The notes beneath the pieces were generated by a model. The model worked only from the letters and a program-made list of their open reading frames with translations. It ran no database searches and was not told where the DNA came from. The position numbers were made by a program, and so were the translations under genes. DNA of 64,000 bases from Candidatus Hydrogenedentota bacterium (lineage in GTDB: Bacteria; Hydrogenedentota; Hydrogenedentia; Hydrogenedentales; SLHB01), in NCBI GenBank assembly GCA_035450225.1, contig DAOTMJ010000004.1:92578-156577 (forward strand). Direction: 5' to 3'. This document shows positions 11,656 to 64,000 of this stretch, in pieces. Within the stretch, counting starts at the first letter, position 1. Every line of letters starts with the position of its first letter.

Positions 11656-12339
11656 TTAATCATCGGCGTTATCGTTATTGACGGACGGCGCCGAGAACTC
11701 CATTTCGTACTTTTCCCGAATGGCCCGCACCCCGGCCAGGGAAAACCGCAAGATATGTTCTGCCAGCTGGTCCACGTTGCTTGCCGCGAGTCCAAAGACG
11801 ACGCGCGGCCCTTTGTCGCGCGGTCCCGGCGCTCCCATGAAACACTGGCCGACAATGCTCATCTCGCACCATGTCACATCGCGCTCCGGAACCTGAGGTC
11901 CCAGCAATTCGCGTAGGATTCCCAAGATCTGCTTCCTGCCATACGCCAGGCTCCGTTCCAGCAAGTCATCCAAGAGGCCCGTCGGCTCGAAAATCTCCCT
12001 CATGCGAATGTGGTGAAGATGGCCTAGACGCACCGGATCGAACATCCGGCTGAGGTGCGCATGGATAAACCCCTGGAGACGTTGCTCCGGTTCCGCCGTC
12101 TCCGGCACCCCTCCGCTCAAGGGATAAAAGGATTCAGCTTTTTCTTCCAGATGCTCGAAAACCGCACGATAGAGCGATTCCTTCGACTCGAAGTAATAAT
12201 TGATGGCCGCTACATTCGTGCCTGCCCGACGGCATATCTCCGCATGGGTGCCATCTCGGTAGCCCTTTTCGGAAAAGACCTTGCAGGCCGCCTCCAGAAT
12301 GCGATCTTTGGTTTCCTGCCCGCGTCTTTGATCGGTCAT
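11656..12339 (-). CDS. TetR/AcrR family transcriptional regulator (first gene of efflux operon)
   Basis: HTH region DRILEAACKVFSEKGYRDGTHAEICRRAGTNVAAINYYFESKESLY. Start set at MTDQ with GGAGGG upstream. Confidence 0.85.
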   Translation of the reverse strand: MTDQRRGQETKDRILEAACKVFSEKGYRDGTHAEICRRAGTNVAAINYYFESKESLYRAVFEHLEEKAESFYPLSGGVPETAEPEQRLQGFIHAHLSRMFDPVRLGHLHHIRMREIFEPTGLLDDLLERSLAYGRKQILGILRELLGPQVPERDVTWCEMSIVGQCFMGAPGPRDKGPRVVFGLAASNVDQLAEHILRFSLAGVRAIREKYEMEFSAPSVNNDNADD

Positions 12340-12368: not shown

Positions 12369-12391
12369 TTCAATTATATATTTCAATTATA
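12369..12391. promoter_or_regulatory. AT-rich direct repeat TTCAATTATA-tat-TTCAATTATA, candidate TetR operator/promoter
   Basis: Two perfect 10-mers separated by 3 nt, immediately upstream of the TetR gene start in an AT-rich patch. Confidence 0.3.
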
Positions 12392-12625
12392 CAATAGATT
12401 CTTCGGCTTGTCAAGTTCTCGCGGAATCTCAACGGCGCGCCCTGGGCCGCCCATGCGGTTGAAGAGCTTGTTGTGGCCGAGGCAATAGTTCGCATTGTCC
12501 GACAGGCGTCTCGATCTTGGGTCCACTTCCGGTCTGTTGGACGCATGGGACTTTCCGTGGATCATGTCACACTATACGGTCACATGGGATTCCTTGGCCC
12601 GAAGCGACGCCCAAGTCTTCGCGGA

Positions 12626-13743: not shown

Positions 13744-14760
13744 TCACTTGGCCGGCGCTTCAAGCGCCTGCATGCGCTCAATGGTTCGCGGTTGATCGGT
13801 TTTCAGTTCAAGCGAACGGGCATACGCGTTGCGCGCGCGGTCGTTCATGCCAAGTTGTGCGGCGACGTCTCCGATGAAATTGAACACGGTCTCGTCGTCC
13901 GGCGCGAGCCGCGCGGACCGTTCGGCGGCTTCCAGCGCGTCCTGCAGCCGCTGGGCGCGCAGCATGACTTTCGCATACGCCATGGCGTCTTCGGCGGTGT
14001 CGGGCGCAATGCGTCGGGCATCGAGAAGACGATCCACGGCCTCCTTGATACTGTCGGTGTATTCATCCGCATATTCGGGGGACGGCGGGCCAAGGGCTTC
14101 GAGATCGGCGTTGCCGTCCCGCACGCGCCCGGTTTGGATTTTCAGCGCCGCCATGGCCAAGCGGGCGCCCCAATGCGACGGTTCGCTTTCCAAGGCCTTT
14201 TCGAGCGCTTCTGCGGCCAAATCGGACAAGCCTTCCTTTCGGTATACGCGGCTCATTAAAAAATGGATGTCGCCATCCGGGGATAATTGCAGCGCGCGCC
14301 GCAGCGCGGCCAAGGCCTCAGGCGCCCGGAAATGTCCCGGCGCGGACAAATTGCGTCCGAGTTCTTTCCATGCGCAAGCATCGTCCGGTTTCAAATCCGT
14401 CAGCCTTCGCCACGTTTCCGAGGAAAGATCATATTCTCCGGCGGCGGAAAGCATTTCGGCGAATTCGCGCAACACCTGAGGATCCCTCGAAGCGCCGGCC
14501 CCCGCTTGTTCATAGCATCTGACAGCTTGTTTCAGGGAATCGTTCGCTTTGTCCGCCTGTTGCTGAAGCGCGGCGGGATCCTCTTGTCCCTGGGGGGCGG
14601 CCACGGCCGCCTTGTCCGCGCGATATTGCGCCCATGCGGACCGTGCGGCGGTGAAATCGTTTGCGGGGTGGCATGAAACACAAAGCAATAGGCCCGCAAC
14701 ACCCGTTTTCCCGACACAAAAAAGGCGGGACATCAAAACCGTACGGATTTTCTCCACCAT
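13744..14760 (-). CDS. Tetratricopeptide-repeat protein with signal peptide
   Basis: N-terminal hydrophobic signal and multiple TPR-like A/L/Y-rich repeats. Confidence 0.7.
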   Translation of the reverse strand: MVEKIRTVLMSRLFCVGKTGVAGLLLCVSCHPANDFTAARSAWAQYRADKAAVAAPQGQEDPAALQQQADKANDSLKQAVRCYEQAGAGASRDPQVLREFAEMLSAAGEYDLSSETWRRLTDLKPDDACAWKELGRNLSAPGHFRAPEALAALRRALQLSPDGDIHFLMSRVYRKEGLSDLAAEALEKALESEPSHWGARLAMAALKIQTGRVRDGNADLEALGPPSPEYADEYTDSIKEAVDRLLDARRIAPDTAEDAMAYAKVMLRAQRLQDALEAAERSARLAPDDETVFNFIGDVAAQLGMNDRARNAYARSLELKTDQPRTIERMQALEAPAK

Positions 14761-15740
14761 TATCCTTGGAGCATGACGCGGCGGATTATCTTCTGGCTTT
14801 CGACGGCATCAAGCGTACGCTGGGCCTTGCGAAGCTCCGCGATGTCTAATTTTTCTAGTTTTTTCCAAAAAATCGAGAGATTGCCCACCGCAATTTGGCA
14901 CGCATGGCATGGATCCATCCGGTGCGGGAGCATGTCGAGAATGGCATATCCTTTATAGCGCGCAATTTTGAGATAAAGCAGCGCTTCCATGATTTCCCAC
15001 ATGTTGACGCTGCCCGGTATCATCATGTCGTCGGTCAGGCGGTACGAATCGCTGAAATACATCTGAAACAGTTTGTTGGCCCGTGTCAGGAAGGCGATGG
15101 ATTCTGCGGGATTCTCTCCCGCCATCAGCGCATGGGAAAAATTCATGGCCACGCCGACATTCTTCATCGCGATTTCCTGGCAGAGGCTAAGCGACTTGCC
15201 CACCGAAGCGATGGTCAAATATTTGCGGGGTTCGCGCGGCTTGTAGGCGATCGCCACATTGATGTCCGGCGAGGCGTACTTGGCGATGGTTTTAATGGAC
15301 GAAATAACCGTGTTCCAATGGGTTGCATAGTCTACATGGAAGGGATAATCGAAACCATCCGTATAAAGCCGCAGCGTTACTTCGGTCGCACCCAGTTGCC
15401 GGGCGATGTCGGACGCTTTACGGCCTTCCTCGATGGCGATGTTTCGTGTCTTGGGATGTTGATGACCGAACGCGCTCAACGCAAACCGTTTGTCCTGCAT
15501 GAAATTGACCGACACCCCCGAACAGAGTAATCCATATTCCTTCAACACCCGTTTGAGTTCACGGACAGGAAAATCGGGCGTTACATCGGTCTGCGCAATC
15601 TCTACCGCCTTCAGGCCCTTGATTTTTGCGGCCATCGCAAGGCGATCCTGCACCCGGGGCATCTCGCGAAATCCTTCGGGCGTCGTCGGATCCACCCCGC
15701 TCGCAAAAATCCACAACCCCGCTGAAATCCGAAGGCTCAT
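14760..15740 (-). CDS. Sugar phosphate isomerase/epimerase (xylose isomerase-like TIM barrel)
   Basis: MSLRISAGLWIF… N-terminus and TIM-barrel pattern typical of the AP_endonuc_2 family. The track ORF begins with an upstream GTG at 15833, so the start is uncertain. Confidence 0.7.
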   Translation of the reverse strand: MSLRISAGLWIFASGVDPTTPEGFREMPRVQDRLAMAAKIKGLKAVEIAQTDVTPDFPVRELKRVLKEYGLLCSGVSVNFMQDKRFALSAFGHQHPKTRNIAIEEGRKASDIARQLGATEVTLRLYTDGFDYPFHVDYATHWNTVISSIKTIAKYASPDINVAIAYKPREPRKYLTIASVGKSLSLCQEIAMKNVGVAMNFSHALMAGENPAESIAFLTRANKLFQMYFSDSYRLTDDMMIPGSVNMWEIMEALLYLKIARYKGYAILDMLPHRMDPCHACQIAVGNLSIFWKKLEKLDIAELRKAQRTLDAVESQKIIRRVMLQG

Positions 15741-16142
15741 CCGGCTGTCCCGTGATGCTACGTGATCGGCGACCATGCCGGGATCGTCGCCTGCGGCTGA
15801 ACTATTTTGCGTCTTGGTATCCACTGGGTTCACTAATCCATGCGCCTACATGCGCGTTGCATGTCCAATCGTTCCATTGGACACGGTCAAGCGGAACAAC
15901 ATCCTCACTTTTCTCTGAACTTCCGCGTTGGGGTTATTTTAGATGATAATTACGCCATTGTCAATACTTTTCATGGAATTTATTGCCTTGATAAGAGAAT
16001 AAATTGATATTTGTGATAAATAATAAAACCATAAACTCCACTTTTGGTCATTAAACTGCCAATAATTATGGAAAAACATCAGCCTCAATAACGTATAAGT
16101 CTTTTTATTTCAATGTGTTGTATTGCGGTATTAAGAGGCAGG

Positions 16143-39833: not shown

Positions 39834-41076
39834 GGCAGGAATCTCCTTCTTCGAGCAGCAGCCGCGCCACCTTGCCGGGCGTGGCGATCTCGATGTCGTC
39901 GGGCACGTTTTGTCCCGTGCTGAAATAACTCAGGGGCAGGCCGCTTTCGGCCGCCAAGTCGAACAGGGCGCCGAAGCGTCCCGTTTCGTCGAGCTTTGAA
40001 AAGAGCAGCGAGGAAGGCCGCAGGCAATTGAACCGCGCGGCGATGGCGCGCAGGTCGTCCGCGCAGGTTCCGGCGCTGAGCACGAGCATGACGTCGTCGG
40101 GCGGCGCGGCGTCGAATTCCGATTTCAACTCGCGGATCTGTTCCTCGTTGAACGGGCTGCTGCCGGCCGTGTCCACAAACACGAAATCATAGTCCGCGAA
40201 AGCTTCGAGCGCGATCAGGTATTCGCTGGCGTCGTTGGCGATGCGCATGGGCAATCCGGCAATGGTCGCGTACACGCGCAACTGTTCCGGCGCGGCGACG
40301 CGGTAGGTGTCGAGCGTGACGATGGCGACGCGCGCGCGGTCGCGGATGGCGAACAGTGCGGCGAGTTTCGCGAGGTTCGTCGTCTTTCCGACGCCTGTGG
40401 GGCCGATCAGCGCGACGACGCGCCGGGCCGCCCCCGCGCGCGCCAGGCCGTGTGTCACCAGCACGCGTTTTTGAATTTCCATGCGGAGCCGTTCGGTGAA
40501 GACGCGCGGATTGCGCAGGATCGATCGGTCGGCATTGCCCACGACCGCGTCCATCAGGGATGCCGCCAGCGTGCGTCCCATGCCGCTATCCACAAGCCGG
40601 CGGTAGTGCGGAATGAAATCGGACGGAAACTCCGTACAGGGTGTCTCGGCGACCAGCACCTGCAGCAGACGGCGCATCTCCTCGACTTCGCGCCGCAGAT
40701 CCGGCGGGGCTTGCTCCTTTTTGCCCGGCGGCCCGGCCGCGGTTTCCTGACGGGGCGTGGCGGCGGCGGCTCGTTGTTGCGCAAGCCGGCGGAAGAACGC
40801 GACGGTTTCGCGCATGGCCTCGTCGGAACCGGCGGCCGTTTGGTGCGCGGAGTACTTTTTTTCGGCCAGACTCTTCGGGCGTGCGAGGGGCTTGGCGGGC
40901 GGCGAGGCGGTCAGTTGAATCGCCTTGCGTCCGAACAGGCCGAACAGACCGCCCTCCCTTACTTCGGCCGTGTTCAGGACGATCGCGTCCTCGCCGAGTT
41001 GGCGGACCATCTGCCGGTAGGCGTCGTCGAAAGTGCCGGCGGTAAACGTGTGCAGTTTGCGTTCCATGTTATGCAC
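39808..41076 (-). CDS. flhF: Flagellar biosynthesis GTPase FlhF (SRP-type)
   Basis: SRP-GTPase motifs LIGPTGVGKTT and DTAGSSPFN, with a basic N-terminal domain. Confidence 0.85.
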   Translation of the reverse strand: MHNMERKLHTFTAGTFDDAYRQMVRQLGEDAIVLNTAEVREGGLFGLFGRKAIQLTASPPAKPLARPKSLAEKKYSAHQTAAGSDEAMRETVAFFRRLAQQRAAAATPRQETAAGPPGKKEQAPPDLRREVEEMRRLLQVLVAETPCTEFPSDFIPHYRRLVDSGMGRTLAASLMDAVVGNADRSILRNPRVFTERLRMEIQKRVLVTHGLARAGAARRVVALIGPTGVGKTTNLAKLAALFAIRDRARVAIVTLDTYRVAAPEQLRVYATIAGLPMRIANDASEYLIALEAFADYDFVFVDTAGSSPFNEEQIRELKSEFDAAPPDDVMLVLSAGTCADDLRAIAARFNCLRPSSLLFSKLDETGRFGALFDLAAESGLPLSYFSTGQNVPDDIEIATPGKVARLLLEEGDSCRGSSAQSA

Positions 41077-43147
41077 TCACTTGTCCCTCGCTCTGTACCT
41101 GCACTTCGGGATCGATTTCATTGTATGAAAGCACGACGATTTTCGGGATGCGCCGTTCGACCATGCGCCGGAAATACCGCCGCACCGGCGCGGATGTCAG
41201 CACCACCGGCTCATGTCCCACCAGCGTCAGCGGCTGCACGGCCTGCGCGGCATTGCGCGCTATGAGATCCGCGCGATTCGGCGCGATGGGCACGTATTCC
41301 CCGGTTTCGCCCTGCCGCACCGCGTCGAGGATCTCGCGCTCGACGGCGGGATCGAGCGTCACGACGTGCAACACGCGTCCTTCGTCGGCGTACTGTGCGG
41401 AAATTTCGCGGGCGAGCCGGTGCCGGCAATACTCGGTCAGGATGTCGAGATCCTTCGTGCGCGGGGCGTAATCGGCCAGCGTTTCCAGGATGGCTTCAAG
41501 ATTTCGGATGGACACGCGCTCGCGCAGGAGGTTGTGCAGTATTTTCTGCACTTCGCCGAGGGTCAGCAGATTCGGCAGCAATTCCTCGACCACGCTGGGA
41601 GACGTTTCCTTGAGATGCTTGATCAGGTTCTGCACATCTTCCCGGGTGAGCAGATCGCTTGCGTGCGCCGTGATGAGTTCCGTGAGATGCGTGGCCAGCA
41701 CGGCGGTCGGTTCGACGATGGTGTAGCCGAGACGCTCGGCCCGGTCGCGATGGGCACGGGCGACCCACGTGGCCTGCAGGCCGAACGCGGGTTCCTTCGT
41801 CGGAACCCCCTCGATCTCCTCTTCGGCAAGGCCGGGATTCATGGCCATGAAATGTTCGGGCAGCAATTCGTATCCGCCAATGATGGCCTCGCGCAGGCGC
41901 ACGCGATATTCGTTCGGACGTAGACGCATATTGTCCACAATTCGGATGACCGGCACGACGAACCCCAGTTTGGTGGCGATTTGCTGCCGGATGATCTGGA
42001 TGCGCGTGAGTAGATCGCCGCCCTGTTTCGGATCGGCAAGGGCAATCAGTCCGTAGCCCAGTTCGATCTTCAGCGGATCGATCGTCAACAAATCTTCCGT
42101 GCGGGGCTGTGCCTCTGCGCGTGTGGCTTCCTGATCGGCAAGTTCCTTGGAAAGTTGCGCGGCCTCGCGCGCCTTGAACGCCTCGTTCGCGCGATAGGCG
42201 CCCATCGCCAGCAAGCCGGCCACAATCATAAACGGCACTGTCGGCATGCCGGGCACAAGCCCGAAAATCGCGAGCATCGCCGCGGACACGCCCAGCGCGC
42301 GCGGGTATCGCGTCAATTGGCGCCCGAAGTCCACCCCCATGTTTTCCTCGGTCGCCGTGCGCGTCACGATGAGGCCCGCCGCGGTCGAAACGACCAGCGC
42401 GGGCACTTGTGTGACGAGGCCGTCGCCGATGGTCAGTTGCGTGTAGACGCGCAAGGCGTCGGTGACCGGCAGCCCGCGCATCAGCACGCCGATGATCAAT
42501 CCGCCGATGATGTTGACAATCGTGATGACCAACCCGGCAATGGCGTCGCCGCGGACGAATTTCGTCGCGCCGTCCATCGCCCCGTAAAAGTCCGCCTCGC
42601 GCTCGATCCCCTGCCGGCGCGCACGCGCCTGGGCCTCGGTGATGAGGCCCGCGTTCAGATCGGCGTCCACGCCCATCTGTTTGCCGGGCATGGCGTCCAA
42701 GGTAAAACGCGCGGCCACTTCCGAAATGCGCTGCGCGCCCCGCGTGATGACCACGAACTGGATCACCACAAGGATAAGGAAAATGACGGCTCCGACCACG
42801 AAACTGCCGCTCGTCACAAAACTTCCAAACGCATTGATCACGTTGCCCGCATAGCCGTTCGCGAGGATCAGGCGCGTCGAGGCCACATTCAGACTGAGGC
42901 GGAACAGCGTCAGGATCAACAGCATCGAGGGAAACACGGCGAATTCGACGGGGCGTTGCAGGTAGATGGTGGCGAGCAGGGTAACGACCGAAATCGAGAT
43001 GTTGACGGTCAGCAGGATGTCGAGCGCCCATGTCGGGATGGGAATGACCAGCACGACCAGAATGCCGATCACGCACACGGCCAGCGCGACATCCTGATTG
43101 TCCGCCAAATTCCACGGACGCTGCGTCTCGACTTGTCCTATCGCCAC
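41069..43147 (-). CDS. flhA: Flagellar biosynthesis protein FlhA
   Basis: FHIPEP family. 8-TM N-terminus plus conserved cytoplasmic domain. Begins with GTG, with GGAG 7 nt upstream. Confidence 0.9.
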   Translation of the reverse strand: MAIGQVETQRPWNLADNQDVALAVCVIGILVVLVIPIPTWALDILLTVNISISVVTLLATIYLQRPVEFAVFPSMLLILTLFRLSLNVASTRLILANGYAGNVINAFGSFVTSGSFVVGAVIFLILVVIQFVVITRGAQRISEVAARFTLDAMPGKQMGVDADLNAGLITEAQARARRQGIEREADFYGAMDGATKFVRGDAIAGLVITIVNIIGGLIIGVLMRGLPVTDALRVYTQLTIGDGLVTQVPALVVSTAAGLIVTRTATEENMGVDFGRQLTRYPRALGVSAAMLAIFGLVPGMPTVPFMIVAGLLAMGAYRANEAFKAREAAQLSKELADQEATRAEAQPRTEDLLTIDPLKIELGYGLIALADPKQGGDLLTRIQIIRQQIATKLGFVVPVIRIVDNMRLRPNEYRVRLREAIIGGYELLPEHFMAMNPGLAEEEIEGVPTKEPAFGLQATWVARAHRDRAERLGYTIVEPTAVLATHLTELITAHASDLLTREDVQNLIKHLKETSPSVVEELLPNLLTLGEVQKILHNLLRERVSIRNLEAILETLADYAPRTKDLDILTEYCRHRLAREISAQYADEGRVLHVVTLDPAVEREILDAVRQGETGEYVPIAPNRADLIARNAAQAVQPLTLVGHEPVVLTSAPVRRYFRRMVERRIPKIVVLSYNEIDPEVQVQSEGQVSA

Positions 43148-49226: not shown

Positions 49227-50432
49227 TCAGCGGCGGCGCAGTAGACTGTGCCGCCGACGCGAACCGCGGGACACTTTTGGGCGTTCCGATTCCGGGGTAA
49301 ACAGCGAAATGACCGGCACGGCGCCTTCCCATTCCGCGCGCGGCAGATTCTTGCCGAGCGCCTTTTCGAGCGTTTTTAGGTCCATGAACTCTTCCGGACA
49401 CACGAAGGTAATCGCGTCGCCTTCCGCGCTGGCGCGGGCGGTGCGCCCGATGCGGTGGATGTATTCTTCCGCAGTCTTGGGGATGTCGAAATTGATTACA
49501 TGGCTGATGCCCTGGATATCGAGTCCGCGCGCGGCCACGTCGGTCGCGACAAGGATCTTGTACCGGCCTTCGCGGAACCCGTCGAGCGCATGCTGGCGCT
49601 GGTTTTGGGAACGGTCGCCATGAATCGCCTGCGCCTTGAAACCTTCCCGGTGCAGCGCCTTGGCGACGCGATCGGTGCGATGCTTGGTGCGTATGAAGAC
49701 CAGCGCCGAGGTCACGGCCGGATCCCGGAGGATTTTGGTGAGCAGGGAGATTTTCGAAGTGGCGCTGACCGTGTAGATTTGCTGGCGGACGCTGTCCACC
49801 GGCGTCATGATGGTCCCCACCTCGATGCGTTGGGGCGACTGCTGCATGTCGGCGGCCAACCGTGCGATTTCCTGCGGGAACGTCGCCGAAAAGAACAGCG
49901 TTTGGCGGTCTTTCGGGAGTTTGTCGAGGATGCGGCGGATGTCGGGCAGAAAACCCATGTCCAGCATCCGGTCGGCCTCGTCCAGCACGAGAATGGCAAG
50001 ATGGTCAAAGCGCACGTTGCCGCGCCCGAAATGATCGAGCAGGCGCCCGGGCGTGGCGACAACCACCGTGCGTCCCTGGCGCAGCGCGGTGGCCTGCTTG
50101 TCCATGCCGGCGCCGCCGTAGACGCACACGGCGTTGAGACCGGCGCTCTTGGCCAGCGGTTCGATGACCGCATGCACCTGAATGGCCAGCTCGCGCGTCG
50201 GCGCGAGGACCAGCATGGCGTTTTTCGTCCGGGGCAATCCGGCGAGACGGGTCAACGACGGCAGCGCGAACGCCAGCGTCTTGCCCGTGCCCGTCTGGGC
50301 GATGGCCAGAAGGTCTTTCCCTTCCAGCGCGACCGGTATGGCCTGTTCCTGGACGGGTGTCGGCTCGACGATACCCTGCGCCTTGAGCAGTTTCATAAAG
50401 CGCGGATCGATACTGAATTCTTCAAAAGTCAT
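49227..50432 (-). CDS. DEAD-box ATP-dependent RNA helicase
   Basis: Q motif PTPVQ, AQTGTGKT, PTRELA, DEAD, SAT, HRIGRTARA. Trimmed to MTFEEF. My hand-indexing of the start differs by 1 nt (see noticed_but_rejected). Confidence 0.9.
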   Translation of the reverse strand: MTFEEFSIDPRFMKLLKAQGIVEPTPVQEQAIPVALEGKDLLAIAQTGTGKTLAFALPSLTRLAGLPRTKNAMLVLAPTRELAIQVHAVIEPLAKSAGLNAVCVYGGAGMDKQATALRQGRTVVVATPGRLLDHFGRGNVRFDHLAILVLDEADRMLDMGFLPDIRRILDKLPKDRQTLFFSATFPQEIARLAADMQQSPQRIEVGTIMTPVDSVRQQIYTVSATSKISLLTKILRDPAVTSALVFIRTKHRTDRVAKALHREGFKAQAIHGDRSQNQRQHALDGFREGRYKILVATDVAARGLDIQGISHVINFDIPKTAEEYIHRIGRTARASAEGDAITFVCPEEFMDLKTLEKALGKNLPRAEWEGAVPVISLFTPESERPKVSRGSRRRHSLLRRR

Positions 50433-50772
50433 GGTTATTTCCCTTTCGTTTGCCGGAGACTCTCCGGTCAAGGTGGAATCTTGCCTGCTGAACACCGGCA
50501 AAGAGGGAAGCATACACGAACATAAGCGCCTTTTGGCGCGGGCGAGTGGCCATTCTTTCTGGTGTACACAGGCCGGCGGGAAAACGCTCCTTGGCGCCGC
50601 CGCGCCGCCTGAACAGCAGCCATATTGGGCGCCAGTATGCCACACCACCCGCACAAAACACAAATCTTCAAACGGCGAAAAATCCGATACCGCCTTCTTC
50701 GCGCTTGGCCCTGGATGTTTGGTATTCTTCTTCCGAATGGTCCGGTGGATTGTGCGGAGGAATCAAATAACG

Positions 50773-60078: not shown

Positions 60079-60220
60079 TGATAATCTCCATTGAGCGATT
60101 GCCGCAAATGCCATGGAAGGACTATATCCCGCATGGGGCAAACAGCGCAATGCCCGGAATGCGTTCGCTTGAGCCGACCTTGCGCGTTGCGGTATGGTCT
60201 TGCCGAAGGAGAACCGACGC

Positions 60221-60670
60221 ATGATTATGGATGTCTTGTCCCGGTGGAACCATTACTACTGGCTGAACGAGCGGTTCGAGGAGTCGTTTCGTTTTCTCGA
60301 AATGCTGGCGCCCGGGACGCCCGACGGCCGGCACGACATTGACGGCGACAATGTTTATTGCATGATTCAATCCTATGAAACCAAATCGCGCGAGGGGCAA
60401 CAGTTCGAGGCGCACCGCCAGTACGCGGACATCCAGATGGTCCTGGAAGGGGAGGAATCCATTCTATGGGCGCCGGCCGACGGGCTGGAGACCGTCCGTC
60501 CGTACGAGCCCGATATCGCGTTTTTCGCGCTGACGCCCACACCCGCCGAACTCGTGCTGACGCCGTCCGTCTTTTGTGTGTTCTTTCCCCAGGACGCGCA
60601 CGCGCCCTGCCTCCGGCATGGCGGCATAACCCGCGTACGCAAAGCGGTTGTGAAAGTACGTATCTCCTGA
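60221..60670 (+). CDS. YhcH/YjgK/YiaL (DUF386) family protein
   Basis: RWNHYYWLN…HRQYADIQMVLEGEE…FFPQDAHAP cupin-like pattern of the family. AAGGAG 9 nt upstream. Confidence 0.7.
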   Translation: MIMDVLSRWNHYYWLNERFEESFRFLEMLAPGTPDGRHDIDGDNVYCMIQSYETKSREGQQFEAHRQYADIQMVLEGEESILWAPADGLETVRPYEPDIAFFALTPTPAELVLTPSVFCVFFPQDAHAPCLRHGGITRVRKAVVKVRIS

Positions 60671-60743: not shown

Positions 60744-61268
60744 ATGGCACCCGTTTATTTTGTGGACGGATACAACGTGATCCATCACTCGACGCGGTTG
60801 CGCCCGCTGGCAATCGAAAGTTTCGAGCAGGCCCGCGACGCCCTCATTGAACACGTGGGGCGGTTTTGCGTGGCCACCGGCCACACGGTCAAGATCATCT
60901 TCGACGGGTGCGGCCGCCGCGCCGAACCGGCGCCGCCCCTAAAAGGCATCAAAGGGCTTGAGGTATTGTATTCCCCGGGCCATCAAAGCGCCGACGCGTT
61001 GATCGAACGGACCGTCTACCAAACGCCGAACCGGCGCAACGTTATCGTGGTCAGCAGCGACCGGGGCATTCGCGACCTGTGTCGCGGCCTTGGCGCGATG
61101 GTCATGGATGCGGACATCTTTCTCGACACCATCGGCGAGTCCGAGTCCGAAACCCGCGCCGCAATGGTTCATCTTCAGCGGGCCGACACGCTGAACCGCA
61201 TCGAAAACCGCCTCGGCGAAGCCAACGTCTCCCTTCTCGAACAACTGAAGCGGAAGCTCAAAACATAG
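60744..61268 (+). CDS. NYN (PIN-like) domain protein, YacP/Rae1 family
   Basis: YFVDGYNVIH, KIIFDG, and VVSSDRGIRD blocks. Confidence 0.7.
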   Translation: MAPVYFVDGYNVIHHSTRLRPLAIESFEQARDALIEHVGRFCVATGHTVKIIFDGCGRRAEPAPPLKGIKGLEVLYSPGHQSADALIERTVYQTPNRRNVIVVSSDRGIRDLCRGLGAMVMDADIFLDTIGESESETRAAMVHLQRADTLNRIENRLGEANVSLLEQLKRKLKT

Positions 61269-61433
61269 CGTCTACATGCCCCGATAGCGGCTTGGCGTGG
61301 CGATCCACACGGTTCCCGTCCCGGAGGAAAAGAAATACAGCCGCCGCCGTCACGGGAGAAGCGGCACGCGCAATGACGGAAAATATACACGGTCTGCACC
61401 CCAATCGCCTGAATTGTTGTTTGCATTTTATGC

Positions 61434-61462
61434 TTGCCAGAACGGGATTTTCCGGCTATAAT
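61434..61462 (+). promoter_or_regulatory. Near-consensus sigma70 promoter TTGCCA-N17-TATAAT
   Basis: -35 5/6, 17-nt spacer, perfect -10. The next plus-strand start codon is about 195 nt downstream (61664), implying a long structured 5' leader with hairpins such as gcggg-aat-cccgc. Confidence 0.5.
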
Positions 61463-61663
61463 AACTATTTGCGCGAAAACGCCGTTTCGGGATCATGGGC
61501 GCATATGGACGGTTATCCTGCGCGGTTCCGATGCGTGTTTTGGTGTGAATCACTCGGAAAAGGCGGGAGTTTTCGGGCGTTTTTCGGTGGTTTGGCATCG
61601 CGGGAATCCCGCATCGTGATTTCCCGCGGCGGTGAATAGTTTCAGGGGACAAGGAATTTTGGT

Positions 61664-63499
61664 ATGCGGCATACGGCAAGTATGGTCGCGGCGATGGAGG
61701 GCATCAGTCGTCCGGCTTTTTTGATCGCCCGCGAACTAGCCAACAACAGCCGTTCAGGATTGACGGTCCGATTCTTGTCGAAGAAACTCGACTTGCCGGA
61801 AGAGGAAGTCGAGTATCTGGTGGACATCAATCACAAGTTTCTTTTTACGGACCTGACGAAGATCAAGATCGTTTCCGAGGGTCTGAACGCCGTCGGACGC
61901 ATTACCGTTGGCCTCGAAAACCACGGCGACATTCCGTCGTTGTTCCGTTACGTCAAACTGCTCGGCCCGCAGGAATTCCGCCATCTCGAAGAATTCCTTG
62001 ATCTTGAAAGCCCCTGCACGAAAAAGGAACTGGTCGAGTCGCTGGTCGCTCGCGCGTACCAGCACCCGGATTCGGTCATCACCTATGTGGCAACGGGCGG
62101 TTTCTCGCATACGGCGCGGGAAGTGTTCGATATCGTCTGGAACTCGAAGGAGGGCGTCATGCCCGTGTCAAAGATACGCGCGGCGCACGGCGGTTCGGAA
62201 TACGAGGTCGAGCAGGCGCTGTGGGAACTGTTCCGCGGGATGGCCCTGTTCGAGATGTTCCGGTTCGACGCCGAGGACCGTCTGGTGCGCGTGGCGGGGC
62301 TGCTCTCGGAAATCCGGCAGTATCGCGAATCACTCGGACACATCGCCGGACAGAAGGCTCGGCCGAAAGCGCATCGCGGCACGCCGGCGTTTGTCGAGTC
62401 AAACGGCCTGCGTTTCACCGACATGATTTGCCGGCTTGTGGCGGCGTTGGCGGCGCGGCCCGCGCGGTTGCGCAGCGATGGCGAGTTGTTCCGCGAGGAC
62501 CGGCGGCGGCTGGCGGACATCTGCCCGGAAGAAACGGAGCCTTCGCTGAACACATGCCTGTGGGCGGCCCAAGGCGTGGGCTGGCTCGCGCGCGTGGACA
62601 ACGAGCTTCGCGCGGGCGAACTCGAGCCGTTGCTCTCGCTGGGTCCCATCGAGCGCCATCGAATTCTGTGCGACTGGCTGCTTTCGTCGGACACGGAGTC
62701 GTGCCCGCGGCGGCTCATTGCCCGTATCATGGAAGAACTCAGGCCCGGCACGTGGTACTCGGTGATCGAGGTGGCGCGGTTTGGGCTGGCCATCCAGTCC
62801 GAAGACGATCAGCCGTTGCTGAAATGCGCCGGCGCGCATTGGCATTACGCGAGTCCGGGCGCCTTGTCGCATTCCGAGCGGAGTCTGGTTCATGCGCTCG
62901 AAACGGCGCTTGTCTGGCTCGGATTGGTGGACCGCGCCGAAGAGGATGCGGAAAGCGTGTTCATGCTGACGGCGCTGGGCGAGCACATACTGCTCGAACG
63001 CCCGCCGGATGGACTCGAGGGCCTGTTTTCACAGCACGACGCGACGATCGTCGTGCAGCCCAATTTCGACGTCGTCGTGCCGACGCAGGACATGGATCCC
63101 TTGTTGACCGTGCCGCTTGACCAGTTCGCGGTGCGATCGAGCGTCGGCCAGGCGACCGTCTACCATCTCGAAAAAAACCAATTCACGCGGGCCATCCAGG
63201 AAGGACATGACGCGAACGCCTTTGTCGAGTTTTTGATCGCGCACAATCGGGGCGGCGCGCTGCCGTCGAATGTGATGACCACGCTCGAGGATTGGCGCGG
63301 CGGCATGAAACGCGTCCGCCTTCGCACGCTGCACGTCGTCGAATCCGACGACGCCCTCGTGCTGGCCGACTTGCTCCATCGCCGGCGTTTCAGGAAATTT
63401 CTCTCGCCCGTCGAGTCGCATCGTGTCGCCGTCTATGCGAAGATTGACAAGGCCGAACTCGAAAAACTGCTCGAAAAAGACGGGTTTATCGTTGAATAG
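61664..63499 (+). CDS. Hypothetical 611-aa cytoplasmic protein with C-terminal XPB-N-terminal-like (Helicase_C_3/damage-recognition-like) domain, no ATPase motifs
   Basis: The C-terminal blocks ATIVVQPNFDVVVP and TVYHLEKNQFTRAIQEGHDANAFVEFLIAHNRGGALPSNVMTTLEDW resemble the XPB N-terminal domain. No Walker A/B was found anywhere in the protein. Confidence 0.5.
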   Translation: MRHTASMVAAMEGISRPAFLIARELANNSRSGLTVRFLSKKLDLPEEEVEYLVDINHKFLFTDLTKIKIVSEGLNAVGRITVGLENHGDIPSLFRYVKLLGPQEFRHLEEFLDLESPCTKKELVESLVARAYQHPDSVITYVATGGFSHTAREVFDIVWNSKEGVMPVSKIRAAHGGSEYEVEQALWELFRGMALFEMFRFDAEDRLVRVAGLLSEIRQYRESLGHIAGQKARPKAHRGTPAFVESNGLRFTDMICRLVAALAARPARLRSDGELFREDRRRLADICPEETEPSLNTCLWAAQGVGWLARVDNELRAGELEPLLSLGPIERHRILCDWLLSSDTESCPRRLIARIMEELRPGTWYSVIEVARFGLAIQSEDDQPLLKCAGAHWHYASPGALSHSERSLVHALETALVWLGLVDRAEEDAESVFMLTALGEHILLERPPDGLEGLFSQHDATIVVQPNFDVVVPTQDMDPLLTVPLDQFAVRSSVGQATVYHLEKNQFTRAIQEGHDANAFVEFLIAHNRGGALPSNVMTTLEDWRGGMKRVRLRTLHVVESDDALVLADLLHRRRFRKFLSPVESHRVAVYAKIDKAELEKLLEKDGFIVE

Positions 63500-63518: not shown

Positions 63519-64000
63519 CTACCGGTCGCGATGGACGATAAATGCCGCCAGGGCACGGAAGGAATCCGCCTCGGATCCAAACGTCCGTAGCGCGTCCAAG
63601 GCCTGTTGCACAGCCTCCTCGGCCCGTTGCCGTGCCCGATCCAGGCCCAGAATCGAGGGATAGGTCGCCTTTTCATTGGCGGCGTCGCTGCCGACGGGCT
63701 TTCCCATGGCCGCCTCGGAACCGGCGACATCGAGGATGTCATCGGCGATTTGGAAAGCAAGACCGGCGGCCTCGCCATACCGTGTCAAGGCGTCAAGCGT
63801 CGGGGCGTTCGATCCGGCGAGCAAGGCGCCGGCCCGCACGGATGCCCGGATGAGCGCGCCGGTTTTCAGCGTATGCGTTTCCCGCAATGCCTCGAAGCCG
63901 ATGCGATCGCCTTCATGCGCCATATCGAGCATCTGTCCGCCGACCATGCCCCATGCGCCGGCGGCGCAGGCAATCTCCTCGATGACTTGAAGCGCGGCGG
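63519..64000 (-). CDS. Polyprenyl diphosphate synthase (IspA/GGPPS-type), C-terminal part; 5' end beyond window
   Basis: KTGALI and second Asp-rich motif FQIADDILD, then GKPVGSDAANEKATYP. The frame stays open through 64000. Confidence 0.8.
   Translation of the reverse strand, partial: AALQVIEEIACAAGAWGMVGGQMLDMAHEGDRIGFEALRETHTLKTGALIRASVRAGALLAGSNAPTLDALTRYGEAAGLAFQIADDILDVAGSEAAMGKPVGSDAANEKATYPSILGLDRARQRAEEAVQQALDALRTFGSEADSFRALAAFIVHRDR

Follow-up and report, generated by a model that had tools for sequence, protein, structure and literature searches.

A p52-like relative of XPB-linked bacterial proteins, encoded away from XPB under a promoter conserved in the Hydrogenedentota

Introduction

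The p52 subunit of TFIIH (Tfb2 in yeast) binds the N-terminal domain of the helicase XPB and stimulates the XPB ATPase. In p52, a series of winged helices leads to a 'clutch'; this domain shares the fold of the N-terminal domain of XPB, and the two form a pseudo-symmetric dimer (PMC6422496). According to a paper of 2012, no homologue of p52 had been found in bacteria (PMC3353954), and the function of bacterial XPB is described as elusive in a review of 2026 (PMC13024598). Here we report on a gene encoding a protein of 611 residues (the 611-residue protein), which is located at 61664-63499 on the plus strand of a 64,000-nucleotide stretch of DNA from a Candidatus Hydrogenedentota bacterium (GenBank assembly GCA_035450225.1, contig DAOTMJ010000004.1, positions 92,578 to 156,577 of the forward strand; the whole stretch is called the window, and its positions are counted from its first nucleotide). 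The protein has no helicase core and is very probably a p52-like homologue of the partners that other bacteria encode beside XPB; its own gene is adjacent to XPB at none of the loci compared and follows a sigma70-type promoter that is conserved throughout the phylum.

Bacterial proteins encoded next to XPB, which have about 700 residues with one PF13625 domain or about 900 residues with a Tfb2 domain, two PF13625 domains and a WYL domain, carry the NCBI name 'helicase-associated domain-containing protein'. The same name is given to an entry from a Candidatus Hydrogenedentes metagenome-assembled genome (MAG) that is 100% identical to the 611-residue protein. No study on the stand-alone or the XPB-adjacent family came up in our literature search, which covered p52-like proteins of bacteria, PF13625 and Rv0862c. 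The PF13625 family and the NCBI name are thus already known; what is new is a p52-like protein unlinked to XPB, with a novel N-terminal module and fixed across a phylum. To our knowledge, no partners of the p34, p62 or p8 type are known in bacteria. A non-helicase partner that modulates XPB has, in concept, a precedent in the archaeal XPB-Bax1 pair (PMC13024598); Bax1, however, is a nuclease that binds the thumb-like motif (ThM) and the second helicase domain (HD2) of XPB rather than its N-terminal domain, and neither a nuclease domain nor similarity to Bax1 was found among the Pfam and fold or profile matches of the 611-residue protein.

A p52-like architecture without a helicase core

The gene and the parts of its product are as follows.

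61664-63499, plus strand: coding sequence of the 611-residue protein, stop codon included (open reading frame calls)
61664-62353, plus strand: residues 1-230, N-terminal module of the Hydrogenedentota family only, with a winged helix at about 16-69 and helical repeats (profile search, model)
62357-62968, plus strand: residues 232-435, winged-helix array common to the XPB-linked partners (secondary structure, MarR/ArsR winged-helix matches, hhalign)
63050-63400, plus strand: residues 463-579, PF13625 domain with the XPB N-terminal or p52 'clutch' fold (Pfam match)
63401-63496, plus strand: residues 580-611, conserved C-terminal tail ending in LEKDGFIVE, the alignment of which with the XPB-linked partners extends to their last residue

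The original prediction, made by a model from the sequence alone, had described a stand-alone helicase-associated protein of unclear function that carries an XPB/Ssl2-type N-terminal domain at its C terminus and no Walker motif. The domain was confirmed by a profile search, in which PF13625 (Helicase_C_3) matched residues 463-579 over model positions 2-119 of 125 and scored above its gathering cut-off (45.4 versus 34.2 bits, E 9.7e-12). Neither Walker A nor Walker B patterns were found in the protein, which also gave no Pfam match to ResIII, Helicase_C or ERCC3_RAD25_C. It differs from XPB/ERCC3/Ssl2/Rad25 both in lacking the motor domains and Walker motifs and in having PF13625 at the C terminus, not the N terminus; on its sequence, the protein is ruled out as an XPB-family helicase. 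The absence of a helicase core therefore stands, whereas the description of its function as unclear needs revision, since the protein as a whole resembles TFIIH p52/Tfb2 and its C-terminal two thirds are homologous to proteins of XPB operons. NCBIfam and PADLOC gave no match.

An AlphaFold2 model made from 41 orthologues (mean predicted local distance difference test score, pLDDT, 79.6) has a winged helix at about residues 16-69, helical repeats to about 230, winged-helix units at about 250-435 and an alpha/beta domain from about 460 to the end; the mixed alpha/beta fold predicted for the PF13625 domain is superposable on the XPB N-terminal domain. The 17 best Foldseek matches of the model in the PDB were TFIIH p52/Tfb2 chains, with alignments of 350-580 columns and E values from 1.8e-5 to 7e-3; 6trs_B and 7o4i_2 are identified as such by the tool output, and the others are taken by us to be p52/Tfb2 from their chain length and the PDB entries to which they belong. 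XPB chains came next, over 125-185 columns, and generic multi-winged-helix proteins reached E values of about 0.1, which are three to four orders of magnitude worse. The modelled arrangement, i.e. a winged-helix array followed by a clutch domain, is of the p52 type, and the overall architecture is, in this model, closest to that of TFIIH p52/Tfb2; both proteins have a series of winged helices and then a clutch-fold domain, and neither has an enzymatic domain.

Homologues beside XPB in other bacteria

XPB genes were sampled at 80 loci from a metagenome scan with the helicase of L012 (a locus that also holds an orthologue of the 611-residue protein, see below), comprising the 23 closest loci (at least 73% identity) and 57 more distant ones. 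A PF13625 partner gene lies next to XPB in about 35 of the 57 more distant loci, some of the others having short flanks; the partner has roughly 700 residues in the 23 loci at which its open reading frame was delimited and starts 8-140 nt after the XPB stop codon in clean cases. A profile of ten partners aligned with the Hydrogenedentota family in hhalign with a probability of 99.6% (E 1.5e-24, 366 columns, residues 232-611), the alignment being collinear from residue 232 to the last residue, and the homology was also detected by hmmsearch, with E values down to 1e-29. Among PDB entries, and by sequence alone, the partner profile itself matches the N-terminal domain of human XPB (E 4e-4) and the clutch of yeast Tfb2 (E 5e-4). 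On these comparisons, the 611-residue protein is a homologue of proteins that other bacteria encode directly beside an XPB-type helicase, with the C-terminal PF13625 domain and the tail in common. The differences are that the XPB-adjacent genes abut XPB, whereas the gene studied here never does and has its own conserved promoter, and that the 611-residue protein has a different N-terminal third, a single PF13625 domain and no WYL domain.

The likeness to p52 is stronger in some of the bacterial relatives. A distant relative of 899 residues (Tfb2, two PF13625 domains and WYL) is encoded immediately 5' of a full XPB helicase with PF13625, ResIII, ERCC3_RAD25_C and Helicase_C domains, in a genome of 4.7 Mb, and P0143, a relative of the 899-residue protein, passes the Pfam gathering cut-off for Tfb2 (43.7 versus 34.5 bits), whereas the 611-residue protein is a faint match. 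Two copies of PF13625 in one chain are a feature of such distant relatives.

TFIIH p8/Tfb5 binds the C-terminal domain of p52. At locus L088 (7762-7977), a 71-residue open reading frame immediately precedes the gene for the 899-residue p52-like protein and the XPB gene; it is of the same size as p8/Tfb5 and has no Pfam match, the resemblance being one of size and position only.

A sigma70-type promoter conserved with the gene

The promoter elements in the window are as follows.

61434-61439, plus strand: -35 hexamer TTGCCA, TTGTCA in most orthologues (consensus match, orthologue conservation)
61440-61456, plus strand: 17-nt spacer, fixed in length in 61 of 61 loci and partly kept in sequence (consensus ....gg..tTtGT.gGC)
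61457-61462, plus strand: -10 hexamer TATAAT, TATAAT or TATACT in orthologues (consensus match, orthologue conservation)

Comparisons among orthologues use the best 80 (L001-L080) of the 99 loci that were matched in a scan of one genome per GTDB species. For the promoter, the 320 nt 5' of the conserved MRH start were compared at the 61 loci with upstream sequence. The near-consensus sigma70 promoter of the original prediction, TTGCCA-N17-TATAAT at 61434-61462, is present, matches 11 of 12 consensus positions and has a counterpart 5' of every orthologue examined: all 61 loci match TTGTCA-N17-TATAAT at 10 or more of the 12 positions, always with a spacer of 17 nt. When the strict pattern TTG[TC]C[AG]-N17-TATA[AC]T was sought on both strands of 2.43 Mb of Hydrogenedentota DNA, 54 of its 58 occurrences lay directly 5' of the gene, and its single match in the window was the site at 61434-61462. 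Because the neighbouring genes differ between lineages, the promoter moves together with the gene. Conservation of a sigma70-type promoter with this gene throughout the phylum is strongly supported by these sequence data, and its near-consensus form implies that expression would be strong and constitutive.

Further positions are also kept across the phylum, namely a C before the -35 hexamer, a G after the -10 hexamer, TT 6-7 nt after the -10 hexamer and the spacer part tTtGT.gGC; these could be an operator or a start-site feature.

The site had also been put forward as the best sigma70 promoter in the window, a rank that it does not hold. A perfect 12/12 site, TTGACA-N17-TATAAT, at 12386-12414 on the minus strand outranks it as the best promoter-like site in the window and lies about 530 nt 5' of an HlyD-like gene that starts at 11855 (minus). 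A second 11/12 site, TTGACA-N17-TAAAAT, extends from 15964 (minus), about 100 nt 5' of a gene at 14760-15833. The site at 61434-61462 is among the three best sigma70 matches in the window.

Spread of the family

At least 343 homologues are present in a 90%-clustered database, nearly all with 610-616 residues. Most of the best 80 loci are labelled Hydrogenedentota, with identities down to 47%, and the remaining ones bear other labels, apparently as mislabelled MAGs. In an exhaustive profile search, the full-length architecture was limited to about 8 clusters at 50% identity, with about 2,200 additional clusters matching the C-terminal 200-270 residues only. From these searches, the protein is specific to the phylum and constant in length. 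A homologue search with P0162, a protein of 568 residues with a similar layout, returned only five proteins.

Clear orthologues (57-69% identity) were observed on L005 (DATKVG010000020.1), L002, L003, L006-L008, L036 and L047, the labels of which are Bathyarchaeia archaeon, uncultured Nitrospiraceae/Nitrospirales, Rhodothermaeota or FCB group. The family-specific promoter is near its usual distance from the ATG in the six with usable upstream sequence (L002, L003, L005, L006, L008 and L047), and the eight contigs look mis-binned or mislabelled. At L089 and L090 (3-539 and 8001-9713), the gene for an orphan PF13625 protein of 570 residues and another PF13625 gene, a short one, are 7.5 kb apart; Cation_efflux and AP_endonuc_2 genes occur in duplicate between the two and after them, a pattern that points to local duplication of a segment.

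XPB in the Hydrogenedentota

No XPB gene was found in the 64-kb window. At L012, XPB is on the same contig as an orthologue of the 611-residue protein and is followed by addB and then addA. In the tblastn search that revealed this gene, the query being the XPB encoded next to the 899-residue relative, the N-terminal domain of the query also matched the C-terminal domain of five orthologues with 29-34% identity (E down to 3e-9). The Hydrogenedentota XPB, which has motor domains and Walker motifs, keeps an N-terminal PF13625 domain of its own (E 5.5e-36). A PF13625 partner gene is absent from the flanks (up to 8 kb) of all 23 closest XPB loci; addB and/or addA lie 3' of XPB in 15 of these 23.

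The order xpb, addB (PD-(D/E)XK nuclease), addA (UvrD-type helicase-nuclease) was observed at L012 (14061-21833, minus), L093, L096, L100, L101, L103, L104, L107-L109 and L136, which suggests an xpb-addBA repair operon in Hydrogenedentota-type loci.

Proposed role

The overall explanation that we prefer, and consider probable, is that of an unlinked p52-like partner of XPB under a phylum-conserved promoter. The sigma70-type promoter TTGCCA-N17-TATAAT would drive a protein without an ATPase, encoded away from the xpb-addB-addA cluster; pairing of beta-sheets would join its clutch-like domain to the N-terminal domain of XPB, as in the case of p52 in TFIIH, and its winged-helix array would contact DNA or other factors; in this way the protein would recruit XPB, or stimulate it, during DNA repair or recombination. 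Given the association of xpb with addAB, any such partnership would probably serve the repair of DNA breaks. That the protein acts with XPB in trans, a proposal made by analogy with TFIIH, is more tentative, and we place it just short of an evenly balanced judgement.

Several findings weigh against a partnership with XPB. The gene is adjacent to XPB neither in the window nor at any of the 80 orthologue loci or the 23 closest XPB loci, XPB being within 10 kb at only one of the 80 (L012, 9 kb away by tblastn), and the evidence for XPB in the phylum comes from L012 and the 23 closest XPB loci. Orphan relatives in other lineages likewise lack a helicase neighbour, and a strong, constitutive-looking promoter would be surprising if the protein served solely as cofactor to a repair helicase. 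With respect to the protein, Foldseek gives low TM-scores to p52 (0.2-0.38), as the flexible domains differ in their arrangement; the Pfam Tfb2 model (PF03849) gives 10.3 bits (E 0.33) against a cut-off of 34.5 bits, the faint match covering residues 415-527 and model positions 247-355; and no significant match to PDB sequences was obtained with the single protein or the family profile (best E 0.67). Furthermore, the N-terminal 230 residues, though highly conserved, have no counterpart in the XPB-linked partners and are unrelated to p52, which suggests an additional or different function. Compared with p52, moreover, the gene is bacterial and unlinked to XPB.

A number of these observations would be accounted for if the protein acted without a helicase, as an autonomous DNA-binding protein, i.e. 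a global regulator or a nucleoid-associated or chromosome-organising factor, about four winged helices of which bind DNA and the PF13625 domain of which homodimerises in a symmetric form of the XPB-p52 pseudo-dimer. High constitutive expression, as implied by the phylum-wide near-consensus promoter, would suit such a protein, as would the lack of any helicase among the conserved neighbours at the 80 orthologue loci, the orphans of 570-631 residues in other lineages, which are of similar type and likewise without a helicase neighbour (none was found in the gene contexts of P0273 and P0301), and the finding that conservation within the lineage-specific module is highest in its N-terminal winged helix; the two PF13625 copies per chain in distant relatives point to a domain that tends to pair with its own copy. 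Against this stand the collinear homology of residues 232-611 to the XPB-operon partners up to the very last residue, and the exceptional position of the Hydrogenedentota XPB, which has no adjacent partner and yet retains the pairing domain; nor was a DNA motif or operator identified for the 611-residue protein. We regard autonomous action as unlikely, but as the main rival explanation.

The reading of the protein as a partner of XPB can be extended to its origin. An ancestral bacterial module of the XPB-p52 type may have been split in the Hydrogenedentota, XPB staying with AddAB and the p52-like subunit becoming a stand-alone, highly expressed protein with a new DNA- or protein-binding module at its N terminus; the latter may be a general adaptor that brings XPB, and perhaps other proteins, to DNA breaks or RNA polymerase, and would be the counterpart of the XPB-p52 core of TFIIH. 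This extension is speculative, and in its entirety we think it rather unlikely.

The 5' leader

The features between the promoter and the start codon are as follows.

61469-61663, plus strand: inferred 5' leader of about 195 nt, its start position being predicted from the -10 hexamer
61475-61640, plus strand: species-specific extra sequence of about 155 nt, boundaries approximate (alignment with L001)
61472-61548, plus strand: long imperfect hairpin with a 5' A-tract and a 3' U-tract, terminator-like (folding free energy -32.4 kcal/mol, z -2.59)
61546-61596, plus strand: second hairpin of A-tract/stem/U-tract form (-18.4 kcal/mol, z -3.13)
61600-61612, plus strand: palindrome GCGGG-AAT-CCCGC, the surrounding hairpin being no better than shuffles (z -0.78)

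Between the end of the -10 hexamer and the ATG are 201 nt, and the leader would have about 195 nt, assuming a start about 7 nt past the -10 hexamer. This agrees with the original prediction, as does the presence of the palindrome. The leader is the second longest of the 61, for which the median inferred length is 47 nt (interquartile range 42-55). In L001, the closest relative (85% amino-acid identity), the homologous promoter is only 75 nt 5' of the ATG, and both ends of its leader align with that of the window (ends by eye), leaving about 155 nt extra in the window. The extra sequence is absent from L001 and all other orthologues, and the other long leaders are unrelated in sequence. No second copy of the leader was found by BLAST in the window and the 80 orthologue loci, and its identity as a repeat or miniature inverted-repeat transposable element (MITE) is unsupported.

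The leader had further been described as structured, with several hairpins, and as a candidate for riboregulation. The first description holds in part, for the two hairpins at 61472-61548 and 61546-61596, although their z values are biased, the boundaries having been picked after inspection of the fold; the leader as a whole (minimum free energy -75.3 kcal/mol) folds no better than its shuffles (-72.9 +/- 4.3 kcal/mol, z -0.56). A cis-regulatory RNA, e.g. an attenuator or a riboswitch-like element controlling the gene in this species, would be in keeping with the two successive A-tract/U-tract hairpins between promoter and ATG, with the listing of the core of the first (61519-61537) as terminator-like in a consensus scan and with the lack of a second promoter-like site between the hairpins and the ATG. 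However, a search of the leader against Rfam gave no match with E values up to 10 allowed, the extra sequence is missing in a relative as close as L001, and the leaders of orthologues have no excess of structure (median z -0.2, 4 of 61 below -2); terminator-like sites are, moreover, only mildly enriched in this region (8 found versus 4.8 expected). We consider such an RNA improbable. In this species alone, about 155 nt forming two terminator-like hairpins would have been added to the leader; the long leader has the appearance of a species-specific insertion and, as a conserved riboregulatory feature, is not supported.

Gene start and neighbouring genes

That this is a real gene with a real promoter is almost certain. 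No start codon was found in frame 5' of the ATG at 61664 in the open reading frame listing of the window, six public contigs of this species, with gene calls made independently, show the same start and the same neighbours, and M1, R2 and H3 are unchanged in 41 orthologues. The likely ribosome-binding site is:

61651-61655, plus strand: AAGGA, read from the sequence, its last base 9 nt 5' of the ATG

Orthologues have purine-rich GGAG/GGGG runs at the equivalent position. A non-functional or drifting remnant of a decayed XPB-type helicase that has lost its motor domains, as the XPB-type N-terminal domain without a helicase core might suggest, is effectively refuted by conservation and architecture, given that the PF13625 domain is C-terminal, not N-terminal, that length (610-616 residues) and many residues are invariant in orthologues down to 47% identity, that the architecture fits a separate partner family rather than XPB and that a full XPB exists separately in the phylum.

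A YacP-like NYN gene (60744-61268) and a DUF386 gene (60194-60670) are located 5' of the gene, and a convergent polyprenyl synthase gene starts 3' of it, at 63519. The neighbours in the window (YacP-like NYN, DUF386, gatC/gatB and the convergent polyprenyl synthase) are found beside no orthologue outside the species itself and are thus uninformative with respect to function. As part of the preferred explanation as a whole, the region is probably one independent transcription unit of the Candidatus Hydrogenedentota genome. Genes for a PilZ protein and a 249-residue membrane protein, a LarA-like gene and a divergent TonB/ExbB pair are partly kept as neighbours at other loci; a functional link with these was considered and set aside, the pattern looking like plain sub-clade synteny.

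Elsewhere in the window, on the minus strand, are a full-length FHIPEP (FlhA-type export gate) gene at 41072-43147 and a DEAD-box RNA helicase gene at 49230-50663, the latter of ordinary type, not XPB-like, and the sole helicase among the 10 largest open reading frames of the window that were scanned.

Implications

The overall results indicate that many XPB genes of bacteria are accompanied by a p52-like neighbour and that one phylum keeps a diverged, unlinked version of it under a conserved strong promoter. With the invariant TTGTCA-N17-TATA(A/C)T, phylogenetic footprinting offers a clean case of promoter identification in an uncultured phylum. If the 611-residue protein acts alone, it would be an abundant, phylum-specific, multi-winged-helix DNA-binding protein. 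If, as we prefer, it is a partner of XPB, the pairing of XPB with p52 that lies at the core of TFIIH would be older than the eukaryotes, and a defined partner would provide an experimental handle on the role of bacterial XPB. The main value of the finding is as a lead to a bacterial XPB-p52 module.

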